Shown here: positions 2,119-64,000 of the stretch, piece after piece
How positions within the stretch are numbered: position 1 is the stretch's first letter
Layout of the letters: every line of letters begins with the position of its first letter
Assembly: GCA_051313645.2 (NCBI GenBank)
Contig: JBNRSN020000029.1
Span: forward strand, 24,180,001 to 24,244,000
Reading direction: 5' to 3'
From: Centroscyllium fabricii
Lineage: Eukaryota
Length of the DNA: 64,000 nucleotides
The notes under the pieces: model-generated
What the model was told of the DNA's origin: nothing
Databases searched by the model: none
Seen by the model: the letters and a program-made list of their open reading frames with translations, nothing else
Translations under genes and position numbers: made by a program

Positions 2119-3343
2119 GTTCCTGCTGTCCAAGATAACATTTTCCTCGCGAGCATGCTACATCTAGCTCATGGCATGGTTCAAATTACTAATATGTAGT
2201 CGGAATGGGAAACTTTGATGGACTGTGGTGGAGAGCAGTGGAGTGGTGCGCGGGCATTTAACTCACTGGGCGAAACTTTTTCTTCCTTGTTCTGAACCTG
2301 GCTTCAGAGGACCAGTAAAACCGATCGCAGGACTAATCCATTGTGTTTCGCAATATAAAATTGCACTCTAACTATTTCTAGCCAACAATGTTAGCCTCCA
2401 TTTATTAAAAATATTTTTCCACTTACAAATTGTTTTGTCAGAATCAATTGCTCTGAAGCTACATTGTCGCCCGTCTCCACATCCTGATATTGTAAACACT
2501 GCCATAAATATACTGCACTCAAATTGCTGTGAGAGCGAAGTGAAAGGTAAATGTGAAGATAACCTAACTTCAATAACACGATGATGATAAAATTCATTGT
2601 TTTCGATGCGATTGGGGGCAGCTTAAATGGTTCTTTAAACACATGAGCTGTGTTTTGTTTTGCTTGTTTTGGTTTCGCATTTTTAATGTAAGCAAGGAAG
2701 GAAAATATCTCTAATCCGAGATTCCTCGCTGTATTTATCGGCTCTGTATATATCCCCTCCTGCTCACTGTTTCTTTGTTCAGTTCTGAGCAATGACAGAC
2801 AAGGGTATTAAGGGCTATAGAACCGAGGCGGGTGGATTGAGTTAAGATACAGATTGAGTTGAGTTAATCAGCCATGACATAAATGAATGGGGGACAGGCT
2901 CGAAGGGCTGAATGGCCTCCCCCATTTCCTGTGTTCCTATGTATGGTCCAAACCCCTAAAATAAACCTTTCTGTTTTGTCCACAGATGTTGAATGACCAG
3001 CCGTGTGGGTCCAGTGTTTTTGTTTTGCTGTTTAAAGCTAGGTTTTGGGGAATGAGCTTATGAAGTGGAAACCTGTCGTGGATGGAGGGTGGGTTGGTTT
3101 TCTGGAAGGAGCAAGTCAACTGGGCCGAAAAATCCCCTCCAGACCAAATTACCAAAATATTCCCCACCTCACTACCGCATAACGGCAAGTACTGCTCCAC
3201 TCTACCATATAAACCCAACTAGTGTCCCTTCAATTCGACAATCTTCACCAGTGTCCCCACTATTATACAACCTCAGATGCGCATGTACGGAGTGTGGGTC
3301 TTTGACAGTGGGTTTTATGCAACAGCAACCGTCAGTCCTCTTG

Positions 3344-5479
3344 TGTAACGGAATGGTGGCGGGGCCCAAATGCAGAGACACTGAAACGTCTTTCTAAAGC
3401 AAAAACTCCTTTAATATATATATATAACAAATTACCCAAAAACATAATAAAAGTATTCACACACAAATATATACATCTAAACAAGTTCCCCTTCGGAACT
3501 GGCTCCAAATTTCCCAAAGTTGTGAGGAATGAGTAGAGGAATGCTACGCAGCCAAGCGCATCATTTACCAGAGGAATTCCTGTCCAAATCCTGTAAAACA
3601 GGTAGCAAGCAATGTCCAAACCTGAGTTCGGGTGTTGATGAACCAAATGTCCAAGTAGTAGATTCTGAACACTCTTCCGAGTCCGCCCTGCGGTCGAGAC
3701 TCACTCAGACTGTGTCTTCAGAGGAAGAGAATACCTGATCCACAAGCAGGGGAATGCCCTTACTAAACATATGAATGTCCAAACCTGAACTGCAGAATAG
3801 CAGAGTGCAATGTCAAGGCTGAGTGATATGAGCTCCAAACCTCATTGCCTCTCAAGTAGCCCAGCCTGAGCTGCAGGTGGCTGAACACAATGTCCAGACT
3901 GATGACAAATTGTAATTCACTGAAGTCTACTCCACAGCCAGTCTCACTCCAGCTGCCACAGCTAGTCTCACTCTAGCCGAGTCTTCCAAAGAGAATCCGT
4001 CCTCAATAGGGCAAGGGAAAGCCCAAACCCATAGCCTCTCCAGCAGCACAGAATCAGTAACCACTTCTTCCAGTGGTTTGTAGAATGTCTTAGTGAAATC
4101 CAATGATCCCGCACCTGCCACATCCAGACCTCCAGCTTATGAGCCAAAACCGGCAAACAGATCATTTGGGTTTAACCAACCAGCTGCAGGCACTGACATC
4201 AAGCACACACAGGAATGAGAGCACCTAATTGAGGTAATTTAACAATACAAACTAACACAACAAGATACAAAGATGGATACCTTAAAGCGGTATACACCTT
4301 AAAAAGGTATGCCAACTGTGACAGAACCCCCCCCCCCTTAAAGGACGACTGCTGACGTCCAAAAGTACCCAAATACCAAAATTTAAGGTGGGTGGAGGGG
4401 TACGGAAGAGGAACCAACCGTCCCCCATATATAAAAAGGAATAAAAGGAGAGCTAGACGCTTCAGTGTCTGCTGGACCCCAAATTTGGCGGGATCATTCT
4501 GTAACGGAATGGTGGTGGGGCCCAAATGCAGAGACACTGAAACGTCTTTCTAAAGCAAAAACTCCTTTAATATATATATATAACAAATTACCCAAAAACA
4601 TAATAAAAGTATTCACACACAAATATATACATCTAAACAAGTTCCCCTTCGGAACTGGCTCCAAATTTCCCAAAGTTGTGAGGAATGAGTAGAGGAATGC
4701 TACGCAGCCAAGCGCATCATTTACCAGAGGAATTCCTGTCCAAATCCTGTAAAACAGGTAGCAAGCAATGTCCAAACCTGAGTTAGGGTGATGATGAACC
4801 AAATGTCCAAGTAGTAGATTCTGAACTCTCTTCCGAGTCCGCCCTGCGGTCGAGACTCACTCCGACTGAGTCTTCAGAGGAAGAGAATACCTGATCCCCA
4901 AGCAGGGGAACGCCCTTACTAAACATATGAATGTCCAAACCTGAACTGCAGAATAGCAGAGTGCAATGTCAAGGCTGAGTGATATGAGCTCCAAACCTCA
5001 TTGCCTCTCAAGCAGCCCAGCCTGAGCTGCAGGTGGCTGAACACAATGTCCAGGCTGATGACAAATTGTAATTCACTGAAGTCTACTCCACAGCCAGTCT
5101 CACTCTAGCTGCCACAGCTAGTCTCACTCTAGCCGAGTCTTCCAAAGAGAATCCGTCCTCAATAGGGCAAGGGAAAGCCCAAACCCATAGCCTCTCCAGC
5201 AGCACAGAAGCAGTAACCACTTTTTCCAGTGGTTTGTAGAATGTCTTAATGAAATCCAATGATCCCGCACCTGCCACATCCAGACCTCCAGCTTATGAGC
5301 CAAAACCGGCAAACAGATCATTTGGGTTTAACCAACCAGCTGCAGGCACTGACATCAAGCACACACAGGAATGAGAGCACCTAATTGAGGTAATTTAGCA
5401 ATACAAACTAACACAACAAGATACAAAGATGGATACCTTAAAGGGGTATACACCTTAAAAAGGTATGCCAACTGTGACA
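3344..5479 (-). mobile_element. Non-autonomous mini LTR retrotransposon (TRIM-like): LTRs 3344-4323 and 4500-5479, 176-bp non-coding interior
   Basis: Two ~980-bp direct repeats with TG..CA ends, G-rich PPT abutting the 3' LTR, flanking duplication CTCTTG. Confidence 0.92.
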
Positions 5480-5648
5480 CTCTTGTGTCACACTAAGTAA
5501 AACTAGATGCCATAAATATAAGATCCTCAATAATAAATCCAGTAGGGAATTCAGGGAAAACTTGTTTATGGAAAGAGCGGTTGGAATGTGGAAGTATCAC
5601 AGGCAGCAGGCATCAGTGAGGGGAGAAGCGTGATTTTAGCTGTAAAAT

Positions 5649-38899: not shown

Positions 38900-39375
38900 T
38901 GTAACGGTTGTAGGTTGGGCCCAAATGCAATACACCGAAACAGCCACGTAGAAGTAAACTCCTTTATTTCTGAGCAGTAGAAGACATAGGCAACAGTGGG
39001 TCAATATATCGGCAGAAGGTTCACGGAGGCAACAAGTCCAAAACAGAGGTCAGGCAGAAGAGAATCCAAATACCAAAAACAGGTCAATACCGGGTAGTCC
39101 GTCCACGAGAGCGACAAATCCAAAACGAGGTCAGCAGAAGAGAATCCAAATTTCAGAAAGCAGGTCAGTATCTTCAACAGGCAGGATCAGAGAGCTAGAA
39201 CTACACACAGGTGTCACAGTCAGAAAGAACAACGATCTGGCAACCACTAGGTAGAAAGCAGGAGCTTATATACAGCTCTTGATTATCACTGGTGAATCTG
39301 GTCTGTTCAATCAGGTGCGGGCAGTAGAGCTAACGAGGTGATAACCAGTTCAAGGGGAAGAACCAGCCTATGACA
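38900..39375 (-). mobile_element. Solo LTR of the Gypsy family at 43924-49433
   Basis: Near-identical to those LTRs; TSD GCCAT/GCCTT. Confidence 0.93.
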
Positions 39376-43923: not shown

Positions 43924-46900
43924 TGTAATGGTTGTAGGTGGGGCCCAAATGCAATACACCGAAACAGCATACATAGAAGTAAACTCCTTTATTTCTGAGC
44001 AGTAGAAGACATAGTTAACAGTGGGTCGATATATAGGCAGAAGTTCACGGAGGCAACAAGTCCAAAACAGAGGTCAGGCAGAAGAGAATCCAAATACCAA
44101 AAACAGGTCAATACCGGGTAGTCAGACCACGAGAGCGACAAATCCAAAACGAGGTCAGGCAGAAGAGAATCCAAATTCCAGAAAGCAGGTCAGTATCTCG
44201 AACAGGCAGGATCAGAGAGCTTAGAACAAAACACAGATATCTCCGTCAGAAAGCACAAACGATCTGGCAACCACTAGGTAGAAAGCTGGAGCTTATATAC
44301 AGCTCTTGATTATCACTGGTGACTCTGGGCTCTTCAATCAGGTGTGGGCAGTAGAGCTAACGAGGTGATAACCAGCTAAAGTGGAAGAGCCAACCTATGA
44401 GTTAAAGGGGAAGAGCCAACCTACGACAGAACCCCCTCCCTCAAGGGACGGCTCCCGACGTCCCAAACCCCAAATGCGGAGTCGGGTGGGCGGAGGGGGT
44501 GTGGAGGAGGGAATAATATTCCCCGGAACCCTCATCCACGTCCATTTCATCAATTGAATAATGGGAATTCTCCTCATCAGAGGATTGCACCTCCTCGTCC
44601 AGGGTTTCAGGAGAATGCACGGAACTGGTCCCATGCCCAGGTTTCCCAGGGGGCGCAGTCCTCCTACTCGGTTGGTCGAGGTGCCTTCTGTGGAAGTCGG
44701 CCATAAGCTGAGGATCAACAATGTGACGAGCAGGAACGCAGGACCTCTCCTCTGGATCATACCCCTCCCAGTCCACCAGGTACTGAAGTCCTCTTCCTCA
44801 GCGACGGGATTGAAGCAGGCGGCGAACAGTGTAGACCAACCCCCCGTCGAGCATACGAGGAGGCGGAGGGGGCGTGGCAACAGGCACCAATGCACTCTCT
44901 CATGCTGGGTTGACCCGCGACACATGAAAAGTGGGATGAACCCGCATGGATCGAGGAAGCTTGAGTCTCACTGCCGCTGGGTTGATGACCTTCTGGATCT
45001 CGAAGGGACCGATAAACCTGGGAGCTAGCTTCTTAGACTCCACCTGGAGGGGCAGGTCCTTAGTGGAGAGCCACACCATCTGACCAGCCTGCTAGGTAGG
45101 AGCCTCCGAGCGACGACGTTTGGCAGCGGCAGAGTAGCGGTCCGCTGAGCGAAGCAACGAAGTCCGTGCCTGGGCCCATGTCCGGCGACAACGATGAATA
45201 AATGACTAGACGGACGGACAGGAAACCTCCCTCTCCAGGTCCGGAAACAATGGGGGCTGGAACCCATAGGCCCACTGGAACGGGGAGAGTCCGCTGGCAG
45301 AACTGGTCAGGGTGTTGTGGGAGTACTCTACCCACAGGAGTAACTGGGACCAGGAAGAGGGATTCTGGGAGACCATGCATGGTAGAGCCTTCTCCATCTC
45401 CTGATTCATGCGTTCAGACTGCCCATTTTACTGCGGATGAAAACCTGAAGACAGACTGACTGTGGCCCCGATCAGCCTGCAGAACTCCCTCCAGAATACG
45501 GACGTAAACTGTATACCCCGATCAGAGACTACGTCGACAGGAAGACCATGAAGACGGAAAACATGTTGCAGCATAAGTTCAGCCGTCTCCTTCGCCGATG
45601 GCAGTTTAGAAAGTGGTATGAAATGAGCCATCTTGCTGAATCGGTCCACCACTGTCAGGATAGTGGTTAGTCCCTTGGATGGAGGCAGACCGGTAACAAA
45701 GTCCAAGGATATGTGGGTCCAAGGACGATGTGGCACCGGCAGAGGTTGCAGGAGACCAGCGGGAGCCCGACGAGACGGCTTGTGTTGGTTGCAGACCGAG
45801 CAGGCTTTGACAAACTCCCGGGTGTCTTCTTCCAGAGTATCCCACCAGAACCTCCGCAGAATAACCACTTTGGTCCTTTGAGCCACCGGATGGCAGGAAA
45901 GCTTCGAAGCATGGGCCCACTGGAGGACATCAGGTCGAAGGTCCTTGGGAACGAATAGACGGTCGGGAGGACAACCGCTGTGTCCAGACTGATTCTGCAC
46001 GGCTGATCTCACCCTCTCCTCGATCTCCCACGTAACGGCAGCAATCAGACATGGAGCTGGAAGGATGAGGTCAGATCCAGGAGCGGAACTCTCCTCCTTC
46101 TGGAACTGGCGGGACAGAGCATCAGGCTTGACATTGCGAGAACCAGGCCGGTAAGAGAGGGTGAAGTTGAAATGGGTAAAGAAGAGGGACCACCTAGCCT
46201 GCCGTGAATTCACCCTCTTGGCCGTACGAATGTATTCGATGTTCTTATGGTCTGTCCAGACTCGGAGCGGCAGCTTGGTCCCCACTAGCCAATGGCGCCA
46301 CTCCTCCAATGCCATCTTGACCGCCAGTAACTCCCAGTTCCCGATGTCATAATTCATCTCAGCCGAGGACAGGCATTTAGAAAAATAGGCACAGCGATTT
46401 AGCTTTTGGTCGGAAGCAGAACGTTGGGACAGAATAGACCCTACTCCAACATCAGATGCGTCCACATCTACCACGAACTGCTGATCCGGATCAGGCACCT
46501 GGATAATGGGAGCAGAGGTGAACCGGGACCGGAGACGTCGAAAAGCCTCCTCTGCTGCGCAAGACCACAGAAACGGCACCTTAGAGGAGGTAAGGGCCGA
46601 TAAAGGGGCCGCTACCATGCTGTAGCCGCGAATGAACCTTCGATAGATGTTAGCGAACCCCAGGAACCGCTGTAGCTGTTAACGTGTCTCCGGAATAGGC
46701 CAAGACATGACAGCTGACACCTTCTCTGGATCCATCTGCATGCTCCCCAGTGCAATGATGTACCCCAAGAAAGATACGGTAGTGACATGAAACTCACACT
46801 TCTCCGCCTTCACAAATAACGAGTTCTCGAGAAGCCATTGCAGGACAGTCTGGACATGGTGAACATGCTCCTCACGAGACTTAGAAAAATCAAAACGTCG

Positions 46901-49433
46901 TCCATGTAAACGAACACGAACCGGTTCAGCATGTCTCTTAACATGTCATTCACCAAGGCTTGGAATACAGCCGGGCCATTGGTTAACCCGAACGGCATTA
47001 CGAGGTATTCATAATGACCAGAGGGAGTGTTGAAAGCTGTCTTCCATTCATCGCCCTCTCGGATCTGGACCAGGTGATAGGCGTTATGAAGGTCAAGCTT
47101 GGTAAAGATGATCGCACCCTGTAGCAACTCAAAGGCAGAAGAGATGAGAGGATGATGTCATTTAGGCCCCTGTAGTCGATGCATGGTCGCAGCGACCCGT
47201 CCTCCTTACCAACAAAAAAGAATCGAGCCCCAGCAGGTGATGAAGAGGAAGGGATGATCCCCGCCGCCATAGAGTCGCTGAGGTACGTATCCATGGCATC
47301 CCTCTCAGGTTAAGACAAGGAATACAGGCGTCCCTTTGGTGGGGAAGACCCTGGCAGCAGATCAATGGCGCAGTCATAGGGGCGATGTGGAGGCAGCGAC
47401 GTGGCTCTAGCCTTGCTGAATACCTCCCTAAAATCGTGGTATTCAGTAGGGATGACCGAAAGATCTGGAGCGGGAAGAGGTGTTAATTGCTGTCGGGAGA
47501 TGGTATCCTGTTTCAGGCAGTCCTGGTGACAGGAGGAACTCCACCCCAGAATATTTCCCGTGCTCCAGTCAATGTGGGGGTGGTGGCGGTGAAGCTAAGT
47601 ATGTCCCAGAATCAAAGGAAGCTGAGGTGATTTCAGGATATGAAACTGAATACTTTCATAATGATTACCAGACATAAGCATGTGAACTGGTGAGGTCTGA
47701 TGTGTCACCGTTCCCAGCAGGTTACCGTCGAGGGCGTTGGCAGGTACCGGCTGTGGCAGTGGAACCCGGTCAATCTCCAGCTGCGTGACAAGCTCCTCAT
47801 CAATAACATTAACGTCGGCTCCAGAGTCAACAAAGGTGGCGAGAGTCTGGAAACCACTGGGAAGAAGACGTCTGACCTGCCACAAGGGTCGTGTATTGGG
47901 AGAGAGTCTTGTAGGAGTTCGGCTCACCAGTACGACCCCATCTACTGGTGAGCCCGGCCTTTTGCTGGGCATCGGGAAACAAATTGGCCGGCCTAACCAC
48001 AGTACAGACAGAGATTCCCCTGGCGGCGTCGTTCATGCTCCTCTAATGAGAGACTGGTGCGACCCAACTGCATCGGTTCGGGCCCCGCTGACTGTGACCT
48101 TGCTGTAGCAGTAGACCTGGGTGCCACGAAATTCTCTTGAGACCGTTTCGGAGGAGATCGACCAGTCGTTCTCAGTCGTCTCTCACGTCGACACGCCTAG
48201 ATACGGAGGTCAATCCTGGTGGCAAGTCTAATTAGTTCATCCAGGGTGGAAGGGAGATCATAGGAGACCAGTTAATCCTTGATGTACTCTGCAAGCCCAT
48301 GGAGAAAAACGTCACATAATGCAGCAGAGTTCCAATCACTCTGACGAGCTCTGATTCGGAAGTCTATGGAATAGTCGGCCACTCTCTGATTACCCTAGCT
48401 CAGATTCATGAGTCCCCGAGCTGCTTCAGAGCCGTAGGACACCATGCCGAACACCTTTCTTAATTCAATGGCAAACATCTGGAAGGAAGAGCAAGCCAGT
48501 GTCTCTCTCTCCCACTCGGCGGTTCCCCAGAGGCGAGCTCTTCCTGTAAGGTGGTTAAAAACAAAGGCTACCTTTGCCGCCTCATTGGGAAAGCTGTGGG
48601 GCTGCAATGCAAATAGAATGGAACAGTTTGTGAGGAAGAGATTGCATTCCTCAGGTTCCCCAGCATAACGCTCCGGGACCCCGACCCGGGGTTCCTCTGT
48701 GAGGCCTTGTGGGTGAGGCATGGATGCCGACACCGATGCTGGAGCAAGAACTGGTAGTGGTGGGATCCCTTCCACGTCCTTAGCTGCCCGTTAGATCAGG
48801 GCGGCGGTTAGCTGCTCCACTTGAGCAGAAAGCTTCCCCAAGGCCTGCCCCTGGTGCCTTATGGTGGCCTCGACCTGTACAAGACGATCCGGTGTGTCTG
48901 CTGGGTCCATTTCTGGCCAGATCGTACTGTAACGGTTGTAGGTTGGGCCCAAATGCAATACACCGAAACAGCATATGTAGAAGTAAACTCCTTTATTTCT
49001 GAGCAGTAGAAGACATAGCTAACAGTGGGTCGATATATAGGCAGAAAGTTCACGGAGGCAACACGTCCAAAACAGAGGTCAGGCAGAAGAGAATCCAAAT
49101 ACCAAAAACAGGTCAATACCGGGTAGTCCGTCCACGAGAGCGACAAATCCAAAACGAGGTCAGGCAGAAGAGAATCCAAATTCCAGAAAGCAGGTCAGTA
49201 TCTCGAACAGGCAAGATCAGAGAGCTTAGAACAAAACACAGGTATCTCCGTCAGAAAGCACAAACGATCTGGCAACCACGAGGTAGAAAGCAGGAGCTTA
49301 TATACAGCTCTTGATTATCACTGGTGACTCTGGGCTGTTCAATCAGGTGCGGGCAGTAGAGCTAACGAGGTGATAATCAGTTAAAGGGGAAGAGCCAACC
49401 TATGAGTTAAAGGGGAAGAGCCAACCTATGAGA
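43924..49433 (-). mobile_element. Full-length Ty3/Gypsy chromovirus (Tf1/sushi-like); LTRs 43924-44428 and 48928-49433
   Basis: TSD GGGTT; PPT GAGGGAGGGGGTTC; gag-PR-RT-RH-IN-chromo order. Confidence 0.97.
44441..48910 (-). pseudogene. Gypsy gag-pol, disrupted by frameshifts and stops
   Basis: PERYAG..FL gag, FVDSGA protease, YMDD RT, DASD RNase H, H..H..C..C and DFVTGLP integrase, [10 protein letters not shown] chromodomain. Confidence 0.95.
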
Positions 49434-60199: not shown

Positions 60200-61490
60200 C
60201 AAATTTTATACTGGAACAATGCTTAACCGATGTGGTGCGCTCACTGATCGTAGAATAACTCTCTCGCCCACTTGATTGTGATTTCTGATGAGGTAACAGA
60301 GAGGGTAGATGAGGGAAATACGGTTGACGTGGTCTGCATATACTTCCAAAATCCATTTGACTATGTGCCCCCTAATAGACTTGCCGAGAAAGGTAAAGCC
60401 CATGGAATAAAAGGGACAGTGGCAGCATGAATACGAAATTGGTTAAGTACAGGAAACTAGAGAGTTGTGGTGAACTATTACTTTTCGAAATTGAGGAAGG
60501 TGTTCCCGGGGTCGGTTCTAGAACCACTGCTTTTCTTGATAAATATTAATGACTTAGATGTGTGGGGCGTTTACGGCACAATTTCAAAAGTTGCAGCTGA
60601 ATCAAAACTTGGAAGTATAGTGAACAGTGGGCAGGATAGTGACAGAGTTCAAGAGATCATAGACAGGCTCGGGCAATGGGCGGGCACGTGGGAGGTGAAA
60701 TCTAACGCAGAAAAATGCGAAGTGTTGCATTTTGGTAGAAAGAATGAGGAGATGAAATGTCAACTAAAGGGTACAATCCTAAAGCGGGTGCATGAACAGA
60801 GAGACCTGGGGGTATATGTGCTCAAATCATTGAAGGTGGCAGAGCAGGTTGGGAAAGCAGTTAAAGAAAGCTTAGGGGATCCTGGGCTTCTTATGATGCT
60901 CCTGTTTAAAACACTGGTTCGGCTCCAACTGGAGTATTGTGTCCAATTCTGGGCACCACAATTTAGGAGGGATATGAAGGCCTTAGAAATGGTACAGAAA
61001 AAGATTGACAAGAATGATTCCAGGGATGAGGGATATCCGTTACCTGGATAGACTGGAGAAGCTCGGTTTGTTATCCTTAGAACAGAGATAATTGAGAGGA
61101 GATTTGTTGGAGGTGTTTAAAATAATGAGGGGTCTGGACAGAGTAGTTAGAGAGGAACTGTTCCCATTGGCAGTAGTGTCGAGAATCAGAGGGCAGATAC
61201 TTAAGGTGATTGGAAAAAAAAACCAAAGACGACATAAGAAGAGCCTTTTTTAGACAGCGAGTGACAAGGATCTGGAATGCACCGCCTGAAAAATGGTGGG
61301 GGCAGATTCCATCACAGCCTTTAAAATGGAGATGGATATGTAACTGAAGGAAAGAAAATGCAGCGCTACAGGGAAAGGACGGGAGAGTGGGACTCGCTGA
61401 AGTGATCTTGCTGAGAGCCGGCACGGACTGGAAGTGCCGAAGGGCCTTCTTCCGCGCTGTAAACATTCTAATCTCTGATTCTGTGAAAGG
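60200..61490 (+). mobile_element. CR1 RT 3' portion
   Basis: GSVLEPLLFLININDL, KCEVLHFGR, YCVQFWAP. Confidence 0.9.
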
Positions 61491-64000
61491 CACTACATAA
61501 ATTCAAGATGTTGTTATAATAGTTTTTATAATATCCGTAACATAAAAATCCAAACTTTACAAAATTATCCACGCAAAATGCCAAAGGGAAATTCATTTGA
61601 ATAACATCCATTGCACCTTTGCAACACATCTTTCCACTTATTTGCGTTTCCTCAGTTTGCTGATAAATATTTAACTCACGGCCTGTTCACATTAATAGTC
61701 ACAAGCAGGATCAGATAGACTCAGCGTGTTTCACCGCTCGGGGATGTACCAAAGGCATAATCCAGTCATAACGGCACAGCTTATCGAGTCGGTGCCGGCT
61801 CACTGTGTAGATAATTCCAGTCCGTCCTGTTCCCCCGCCCTATCTCTGTAGCCCTGCAAGTTTATTTCCCTCAGGTACCAATCCAGTCTCCCCTTGAAAA
61901 CATCCTCCTGCTGTTTATTTTCATTATCCTACAGAATATTCGAAATTGACCTCAACATGTTATACACCTCTTAAATATCGGAATGCTTAGATTGTTGTAA
62001 TGATCGCTGCGATTCATCCAGATTTGATAAATTTACAGAAAATTAAATATCACAAAACCGTAATTGCCACCAGTAAACACGGTCAGTGACGTGTGAATTT
62101 AACCTGTTAGAAAGTATTTTTCAGCAGCTGCGATGTCCGAGTGGTTAAGGCGTTTGACTTGAAATCCAATGGGGTTTCCCCGCGCAGGTTCGAACCCTGC
62201 TCGCAGCGGGTTTTTTCATTATTGGAATCAACTAAAAATAATTTTCTTCAATCTGATTCCTCTGGAATGATTTTGAAATTTTCGATCTCGATTTTAAGGA
62301 AACTAAAGGACTGGCGACTAACCTGGATCACTTAATTACTTCAAGAAGGCTTGCTGCGTTTGCTGGCCAATTCTTAAAATTTGCTGCAGATTGTTTGGAA
62401 GCTCCAGATAAGGAGGCCTCGAGAGTCTCTGAGGAACCTTCTCAGACAATCGGTGCTGTCCGGTAGCATCATTCTGTTTAACAATGGGAGTGAGAGAATT
62501 GAAAGTCACTGGAAGGCTTGTTTCTGTTAGCAGAAATGGTATAAGAGCTGCCATTCTAAAGTAAAAAGCAGAATCCAGTCCAGGAGACAGTCCAGGAGAC
62601 AGACAAACGGAGAGGGGATCGCGAAGACTGACCAGAAACACACCAAGAAACGTATCAACAGATAAGTTATCTCTCCGACTCCCGAAGCAGAAGAATTGAC
62701 CATTCTGAGTTTCGAGTTGTACCACTGACGTAAAGGTTGTCCAAATCTCTCTGTGTAAAACTTGTACGAAATGTTAATAAAAACAATTGTTCGGAAAGTG
62801 CAATTGGTTGATCTTAGCTCTGATTACCCTAAAGAGTGAAGAGAGCTAAAACAAAAACCCAACAGTTCCTGCTGTCCAAGATAACATTTTCCTCGCGAGC
62901 ATGCTACACATAGCTCATGGCATGGTTCAAATTACTAATATATAGTCGGAATGGGAAACCTTGTCGGACTGTGGGGGAGAGCAGTGGAGTGGTGCGCGGG
63001 CATTTGACTCACTGGGCGAAACTTTTTCTTCCTTGTTCTGAATCTCGATTCAAACCGACCATTAAATCGATGGCAGTACTAATCCATTGTGTTCCGCAAT
63101 ATTAAGTTGCACTCTAACTATTTCTAGCCAACAATGTTAGCCTCCATTTACAAAAAACATTTTTCCACTTACGAATTATTTTGTTAGAATCAATTGCTCT
63201 GAACCTACATTGTCGCCTGTCTCGACATCCTGATATTGTAAACACTGCCATAAATATACTGCACTCAAATTGCTGTGAGAGCGAAGGGAAAGGTAAATGT
63301 GAAGATATTCTAACTTCAATAACACGATGATGATAAAATTCATTGTTTTCGATGCAATTGGGGGCAGCTTAAATGGTTCTTTAAACACATGAGCTGTGTT
63401 TTGTTTTGCTTGTTTTGGTTTTGCATTTTTAATGTAAGCAAGGAAGGAAAATATCTCTAATCCGAGATTCCTCGCTGTATTTATCGGCTCTGTCTATATC
63501 CCCTCCTGCTCACTGTTTCTTTATTCAGTTCTGAGCAATGACAGACAAGGGTATTAAGGGCGATAGAACCGAGGCGGCTGGATTGAGTTAAGATACAGAT
63601 TGAGTTGAGTTAATCAGCCATGATATAAATAAATGGGGGACAGGCTCGAAGGGCTGAATGGCCTCCCCCTGTTCCTGTGTTCCTATGTATGGTCCAAACC
63701 CCTAAAATAAACCTCTCTGTTTTCTCCACAGATGTTGAATGACCAGCCGTATGGGTCCAGTGTTTTTTTTGCTGTTTAAAGCTGGGTTTTGGGGGATGAG
63801 CTGATGAAGTGAAAACCTGTCGTCGATGGAGGGTGGGTTGGTTTTCTGGAAGGAGCAAGTCAACTGGGCCGGAAAATCCCCATCAGACAAAATCACCAAA
63901 ATATTCCCCACCTCACTACCGCATAACAGCAAGCACTGTTCCACTCTACCATATAAACCCAACTAGTGTCCCTTCAATTCGACAATCTTCACCAGTGTCC
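60790..64000 (+). repeat. Segmental/tandem duplication, copy B (matches 1-3257)
   Basis: Colinear match up to the window end. Confidence 0.97.
62127..62208 (+). tRNA. tRNA-Ser(TGA), D- and anticodon-stem mismatches
   Basis: Paralog of 1393. Confidence 0.88.

Follow-up and report, generated by a model that had tools for sequence, protein, structure and literature searches.

Introduction

Self-priming of reverse transcription has been demonstrated in the yeast LTR retrotransposon Tf1, whereas in vertebrate elements it is only implicated (PMC4600332), with the implicated range extending from fungi to vertebrates (PMC4600332, PMC6317226). In Tf1, the 11 initial bases anneal to the primer-binding site (PBS), with RNase H cleavage falling between bases 11 and 12, according to the available text of PMC7175516, and a "pretzel" of three duplexes has been described (bioRxiv 2022.12.06.519325). 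Non-autonomous LTR elements are known from a different setting. TRIMs, which include plant TRIMs, PbTRIM, ta-TRIM, biv-TRIM, Helenus, Ajax and Cassandra, are defined as shorter than 1 kb with terminal repeats of 100-250 bp (PMC6934838) and a tRNA-type PBS (PMC6934838, PMC10886601). Vertebrate Helenus elements use tRNA 3' ends (PMC10886601), and the available text of PMC6934838 assigns no priming mechanism to biv-TRIM. LARDs exceed 4 kb, and for 115 sugar-beet families the reported PBS motifs are tRNA-derived (both as given in the available text of PMC13570524). A search of literature lying mostly outside subscription journals, Repbase and Dfam found no publication on a protein-less self-primed family.

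Here, we analyse a 64,000-nt stretch of Centroscyllium fabricii DNA (the window), which contains two short LTR elements, E1 and E2 (the minis), and a broken Gypsy element. The minis probably represent a protein-less LTR family that derives from vertebrate Tf1/sushi (V-clade) chromoviruses, has been reduced to cis-acting signals and is self-primed.

Anatomy of the mini element E1

E1, a young copy, lies on the reverse strand at 3344-5479 (2136 bp, TG...CA ends). Its 980-bp LTRs, the 5' copy with internal sub-repeats at 4500-5479 and the 3' copy at 3344-4323, enclose a non-coding core of 176 bp, exactly as laid out in the initial annotation, all coordinates of which check. The LTR pair differs at 16 positions (8 transitions, 8 transversions, 0 gaps; K2P 1.65%) and AATAAA is found 72 nt from the LTR end. 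A 6-bp target-site duplication, CTCTTG on the forward strand, flanks the element (3338-3343 and 5480-5485). A 7-bp inverted repeat spans the junction at 5474-5491.

The reverse-strand core begins with one G, which separates the terminal CA of the 5' LTR from the PBS, AATGATCCCGC (4488-4498). The PBS is a perfect 11-nt complement of 5268-5258, at LTR position 212, and this reverse-strand segment is the putative self-primer and the predicted first 11 nt of the RNA. CATAAG, a TATA-like box and candidate promoter element (5292-5297, reverse strand), starts 29 nt above the primer copy. The complementarity and its spacing to the box had been proposed before and are confirmed; among 20,000 trials with Markov-resampled E1 LTRs, 11 gave a complement of at least 11 nt at any position. 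The proposal that there is no canonical tRNA site and that the anatomy is of the Tf1/sushi self-priming type holds as well: the core starts with GAATGA and not with TGG, which excludes a tRNA 3' end as primer. At the other end of the core, also on the reverse strand, a small predicted hairpin (4343-4360), located in a stretch 77-80% alike to the 3' end of the window Gypsy, precedes a polypurine tract of AA plus 11 G (4327-4339), then TTC and the 3' LTR.

The longest ATG frame has 69 aa in E1 and 83 aa in E2, and neither of the two long stop-free E1 frames has a Pfam match. Comparison of E1 with E2 by tblastx gave matches in all frames; these are DNA similarity and were not taken as coding. Rfam and ARAGORN gave no match inside E1, and no small-RNA gene and no tRNA- or 5S-derived LTR sequence was found.

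A second copy and a multi-copy family

E2 is located on the forward strand at 22598-24685 (2088 bp), with 962-bp LTRs, a 164-bp core and a 5-bp duplication, GAGTG. Its LTRs differ at 11 positions (4 transitions, 7 transversions; K2P 1.15%). The putative primer copy (22814-22826) and the PBS (23561-23573), both on the forward strand, form a 13-nt complement reached in 0 of 20,000 chance trials, and CATAAA lies 29 nt above the 11-mer shared with E1. Identity between E1 and E2 is ~68% over the whole element and 63% in the R body, and it rises to 100% at primer and PBS; of 1145 11-nt windows, only 97 are identical between them. The diverged copy, which like the target-site duplication of E1 and the U5-leader helix is absent from the initial annotation, keeps the same duplex. 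The core layout is the same, core lengths are similar and the gag ATG is absent from both.

The E2 LTRs end in a duplicated ...GTTACA CCAGT CCGGTTACA (23532-23559). The extra LTR-end piece pairs with sequence just below the E2 primer (22829-22841). Both are absent from E1, a hint that a third duplex may be specific to the subfamily. E2 sits in a 3.2-kb repeat (22237-25461) which, when read by eye, resembles a non-autonomous DNA transposon: its terminal inverted repeats are 13 bp long, with one mismatch, and it contains internal duplications.

Contigs from four of 11 listed sequencing runs, one for each of four studies and one of them labelled fish gut, were mapped to the window. No RNA run is among the 11 listed, and nothing is concluded from this. 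On 4300-5540, the four runs gave 2254, 1009, 33 and 603 contigs, spread over all identity bands; their depth was not taken as copy number, and their length does not allow primer and PBS to be phased. Both the short core and the U5/PBS junction are spanned by deep contigs (X5 records 17, 18; X9 record 26). A one-off deletion, which the initial annotation had named as a refuting outcome, is ruled out because multi-subfamily contigs come from four studies and deep contigs carry the short core. With E2 in the window and contigs in all four runs, the non-coding multi-copy LTR family proposed there is upheld.

At 4821-4893, contigs of all four runs skip ~71-73 nt, and other small skips occur too; subfamilies vary in the number of LTR sub-repeats. 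Several contigs stop matching at 5244-5258, just below the primer, and one E2-like loose contig end has a changed base at the last position of the primer. No variant inside the duplex is present among the 40 rows listed, the best 40 of 92, and nothing is drawn from this.

Primer and PBS pairing across the clade

A search pattern in which the U5 motif and the leader were fixed and the PBS was left free matches exactly the three elements within the window (0 matches in 100 shuffles). The same pattern finds 24 metagenome loci, none of which is a mini copy, and neither of two pattern scans run on viral contigs had a match. Eighteen of the 24 loci were dropped as chance matches, having neither similarity to the window elements nor a gag-type start; an upstream complement longer than 7 nt occurs in none of these. 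The remaining six have a gag-type start after the PBS, and four of them carry an upstream complement of 10-11 nt. The other two are truncated, showed no primer copy and were left out of the pair count: in L001 the upstream sequence is only 289 nt long, the primer of its near-twin L010 being at 327, and in L009 ~40 nt of U5 is recognisable.

Over seven elements (the two minis, the window Gypsy and four metagenome loci), 75 of 77 primer/PBS pairs are Watson-Crick pairs even though the letters differ, and seven of the 11 pair columns hold at least two pair types. Every primer starts with G. Non-cognate combinations of primer and PBS form only 4-8 of 11 pairs, and a TATA-like word is located 29-32 nt upstream of the primer in all six testable elements. 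As primer copies were found by complement search, the pair count and a permutation test (1/720) are partly circular, and the latter was not relied on. The independent parts of the covariation case are the chance test and the TATA spacing.

Between the minis and the window Gypsy, both strands differ at three of the 11 pair positions (3, 4 and 9) and pairing is compensated, as had been claimed, with a T-T mismatch at position 11 of the Gypsy duplex. The 11-bp duplexes of E1 and E2 are identical, which is conservation, with no compensation in the two phased copies. The covariation read from the first comparison is therefore real, but it belongs to the clade and lies between families, not within the mini family. 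Similarly, the U5 motif TGCATTTGGGCCC..GTTACA is indeed common to mini and window Gypsy, and it also occurs in six unrelated fish-like elements. It is thus clade-wide and does not name the helper, which corrects the initial annotation. The GGGCCC form of the motif is present in the window Gypsy and the minis and in none of the six outside loci.

Two PBS formats can be distinguished. In the "GAA" format, 11 pairs run from the second base (E1, E2, L002, L010 and L015), and in the "GTA" format 10 pairs are followed by a terminal mismatch (the window Gypsy at 48927, and L016). Since the minis have the former and the window Gypsy the latter, the parent is probably another family.

L002, L009, L015 (415-1440) and L016 (1039-1422) are fish-like and carry the same U5 and leader signals, with a self-primer in L002, L015 and L016. 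The first ORF of L015 and L016 is Pro/Ala-rich and, unlike that of L010, has no gag Pfam match; elements of this type are possibly another non-autonomous lineage.

Predicted RNA structure

In E1, the U5 arm (4517-4548, reverse strand) is predicted to pair with a leader arm (4455-4481, reverse strand), which aligns to the gag start of the window Gypsy and lacks the ATG. The predicted energies of this U5-leader helix are -44.6 kcal/mol for E1, -38.2 for E2 and -24.4 for the window Gypsy, and -20 to -30 kcal/mol in the six outside loci, in which the search pattern itself fixed part of the helix. None of 500 shuffles reached the predicted energy, except for the Gypsy (7 of 500). Throughout the U5 arm, E2 matches each E1 base. 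Between minis and Gypsy, one G-C pair is swapped to A-U, and at position 4476, where E1 has G-U, the base in most of the contig depth gives G-C. In the coding elements, the leader arm holds the first ATG; both minis are without this ATG and their helix is lengthened, exceeding that of any coding element examined.

The PBS sits in the loop of the U5-leader helix, so the primer/PBS helix and the U5-leader helix cross, and a nested fold therefore cannot hold both. In nested minimum-energy folds, the primer/PBS duplex is present for E2 (pair probabilities 0.86-1.00) but for neither E1 nor the Gypsy, and nested E1 folds prefer a local 5' hairpin. Opening primer and PBS costs 5-14 kcal/mol versus -18 to -19 kcal/mol for the duplex; the net estimates are -13.6, -5.5 and -7.1 kcal/mol, with pseudoknot costs ignored. 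In these models, the minis match two of the three Tf1 pretzel duplexes. Support for the third, in which the sequence flanking the PBS on its 5' side would pair with the LTR below the primer, is limited to E2: the E2 value was reached by 0 of 200 local shuffles, but by 112 of 200 shuffles of the whole region. In the other six elements, 29-115 of 200 shuffles reached the respective value.

The window Gypsy and a candidate helper

The window is rich in repeats (SINE-like, LINE-like and LTR elements). The stretch 16319-22160 holds a LINE with a reverse transcriptase (RT) match and a short tandem tail, preceded by ~1.6 kb of a 92-bp G+A-rich minisatellite. Nine tRNA-like calls between 1392 and 62208, several at paralogous places (1392/62127; 10546/54207/56988; 12101/56650), are probably repeat heads, and 137-1792 recurs at 60891-62542 with 95-97% identity.

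A broken chromodomain Ty3/Gypsy element is located on the reverse strand at 43924-49433, with 505-506-bp LTRs (10 transitions, 9 transversions; K2P 3.9%) and a 5-bp duplication. Stops and frameshifts interrupt its frames, but a domain scan of eight fragments, six of them with matches, recovers capsid, protease, RT, RNase H, integrase, a Tf2-type SH3 and a Chromo domain, the last just under the cut-off. As to its placement in the V-clade, only 60% identity to two fish-like loci and a best PDB match to Ty3 were obtained. These matches bear out the suggested relation to a chromodomain Gypsy. The element has a self-primer duplex of its own, 10 nt long (48925-48916 with 49273-49264; 16 of 20,000 by chance) and 29-31 nt below a TATA word. 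Its 5' LTR begins with TC, not TG. A solo LTR of the same family, 93-94% identical and with a 5-bp duplication bearing one mismatch, lies at 38900-39373 on the reverse strand. The LTR pairs of E1, E2 and the Gypsy alike have about as many transitions as transversions. For vertebrate DNA, such a transition share is low.

The LTRs of the minis and of the window Gypsy can be aligned only over the last 44 nt (82%). By comparison, the mini core reads as a splice of Gypsy-type ends, in which the PBS and a gag-start-like leader are followed by the last ~90 nt before the LTR (77-80%), while its middle has no clear match to the Gypsy. Judged by sequence, the minis are kin of the window Gypsy lineage and not simple deletions of that copy. 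Furthermore, this copy is broken and older than the minis (K2P 3.9% versus 1.2-1.7%) and therefore cannot have moved them, so it was rejected as the helper. Some V-clade Gypsy of the same genome would be the candidate.

Alternative explanations

The minis might be internal-deletion products of an unseen autonomous family with the same ~980-bp LTR and PBS, in which case the letters of the duplex would be parental and not parasite-specific. A parent other than the window Gypsy family agrees with the distribution of the "GAA" and "GTA" formats, and the loose contig ends at hand are the best 24 of 330. Yet E1 and E2 are ~30% different and nevertheless share core layout, core lengths (176 and 164 bp) and the absence of the gag ATG, the mini helix surpasses that of every coding element examined, and contigs running into unlike sequence make up 1-2% of those mapped in each of three runs (the fourth, which is shallow, has 42%). 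We thus regard this origin as unlikely; it is in any case compatible with self-priming and alters only the origin story.

The complementarity itself could be an inherited relic, with priming achieved otherwise, e.g., by a tRNA fragment or by the strong-stop DNA of a co-packaged helper. Fragment-primed elements are known, such as fungal Helenus (PMC10886601), and the local 5' hairpin favoured in nested E1 folds would fit. Against a relic, the duplex is invariant between E1 and E2 next to an R body of 63% identity, and PBS letters vary freely across families while always matching the LTR of the same element. Moreover, the core lacks a TGG start, none of the nine tRNA-like genes in the window has more than 5 nt in common with the PBS complement, and cross-duplexes with the Gypsy reach -7 to -15 kcal/mol versus -18 to -26 kcal/mol for cognate ones. 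This reading is more doubtful still than a deletion origin. That the locus is a local tandem duplication or an assembly artefact of a solo LTR and not a transposed unit can be given hardly any credence: the core is very small beside the repeats, but both minis have target-site duplications and carry PBS and PPT at the right ends, the E2 flanks match an unoccupied paralogous stretch near 25000, and the short core is found in independent runs.

Comparison with described elements

A protein-less, self-primed family related to the Tf1/sushi chromoviruses, the preferred reading, can be placed among described elements as follows. By analogy, the mini works like the self-primers of the Tf1/sushi group (Tf1, Tf2, Tj1 and sushi-ichi; GyDB V-clade): an 11-nt self-complementary PBS directly follows the LTR, the primer copy lies just below a TATA-like box and a U5-leader duplex is predicted to flank the pairing. 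As in the Sushi LTR model (PMC3601003), the E1 ends fit the att motif and AATAAA is near the LTR end; the E2 end is one base off this motif, which, according to the same source, does not separate Sushi from rGmr1. Unlike the Tf1/sushi group, the minis have neither gag nor pol and have lost the gag ATG, a third duplex is not clearly found and one copy has a 6-bp duplication in place of the 5 bp of E2 and the window Gypsy. In contrast to the neighbouring Gypsy, their LTRs are about twice as long and cannot be aligned save at the U5 end.

With TRIMs, the minis share two LTRs around a short non-coding core with PBS and PPT, and for TRIMs, too, mobilisation in trans is presumed (PMC10886601). The TRIM-like label of the initial annotation does not survive in its classical sense: at 2136 and 2088 bp, with LTRs of 980 and 962 bp, the minis are too large, and their PBS is not of tRNA type. 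The minis do fit the length-free use of the term in the available text of PMC13570524. Helenus, Ajax and Cassandra (TRIMp3) were rejected as labels on the Rfam and ARAGORN results, the LTRs containing no small-RNA gene and no tRNA- or 5S-derived sequence. Like LARDs and mid-sized non-autonomous LTR retrotransposons, the minis are non-coding with long LTRs, but they are well below 4 kb, and the LARD label was rejected. Unlike the 115 sugar-beet families, they have a self-complementary PBS. In the broad sense they are non-autonomous LTR retrotransposons, with two LTRs, PBS, PPT, a target-site duplication, no coding capacity and multiple copies. The minis are a combination of two known features in a clean new example, not a new mechanism.

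Proposed mechanism and implications

We infer self-priming and mobilisation in trans from the analogy to Tf1. RNA polymerase II would start at ~5268, and the first 11 nt of the RNA would pair with the PBS, presented in the loop of the U5-leader helix, to form a pseudoknot of the pretzel type. A helper would supply enzymes and capsid: its RNase H would cut after base 11, its reverse transcriptase would extend the resulting 3' end into U5, the PPT would prime the second strand and the helper integrase would insert the DNA.

More tentatively, the minis may form a long-lived, abundant and tRNA-independent parasite lineage without proteins but with LTR and primer letters of its own. Helper RNase H might then read the shape of the pretzel and not its sequence, so that several Gypsy families could mobilise the minis, and all that remains of the gag start would be a helix arm that became longer when it no longer had to code. 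If true, the family would offer a naturally occurring, minimal substrate of self-priming in trans.

None of this implies new chemistry or a new host function. This abundant family would escape annotation that looks for a tRNA-type PBS or for protein domains. A core of ~170 bp that still transposes is a natural deletion, which shows the signals that are needed: the PBS, the U5-leader helix, the 3' hairpin region and the PPT. It also suggests that, in fish-type chromoviruses, the conserved letters of the gag start are retained in part because of RNA structure, and the family would exemplify self-priming with enzymes that belong to another element.
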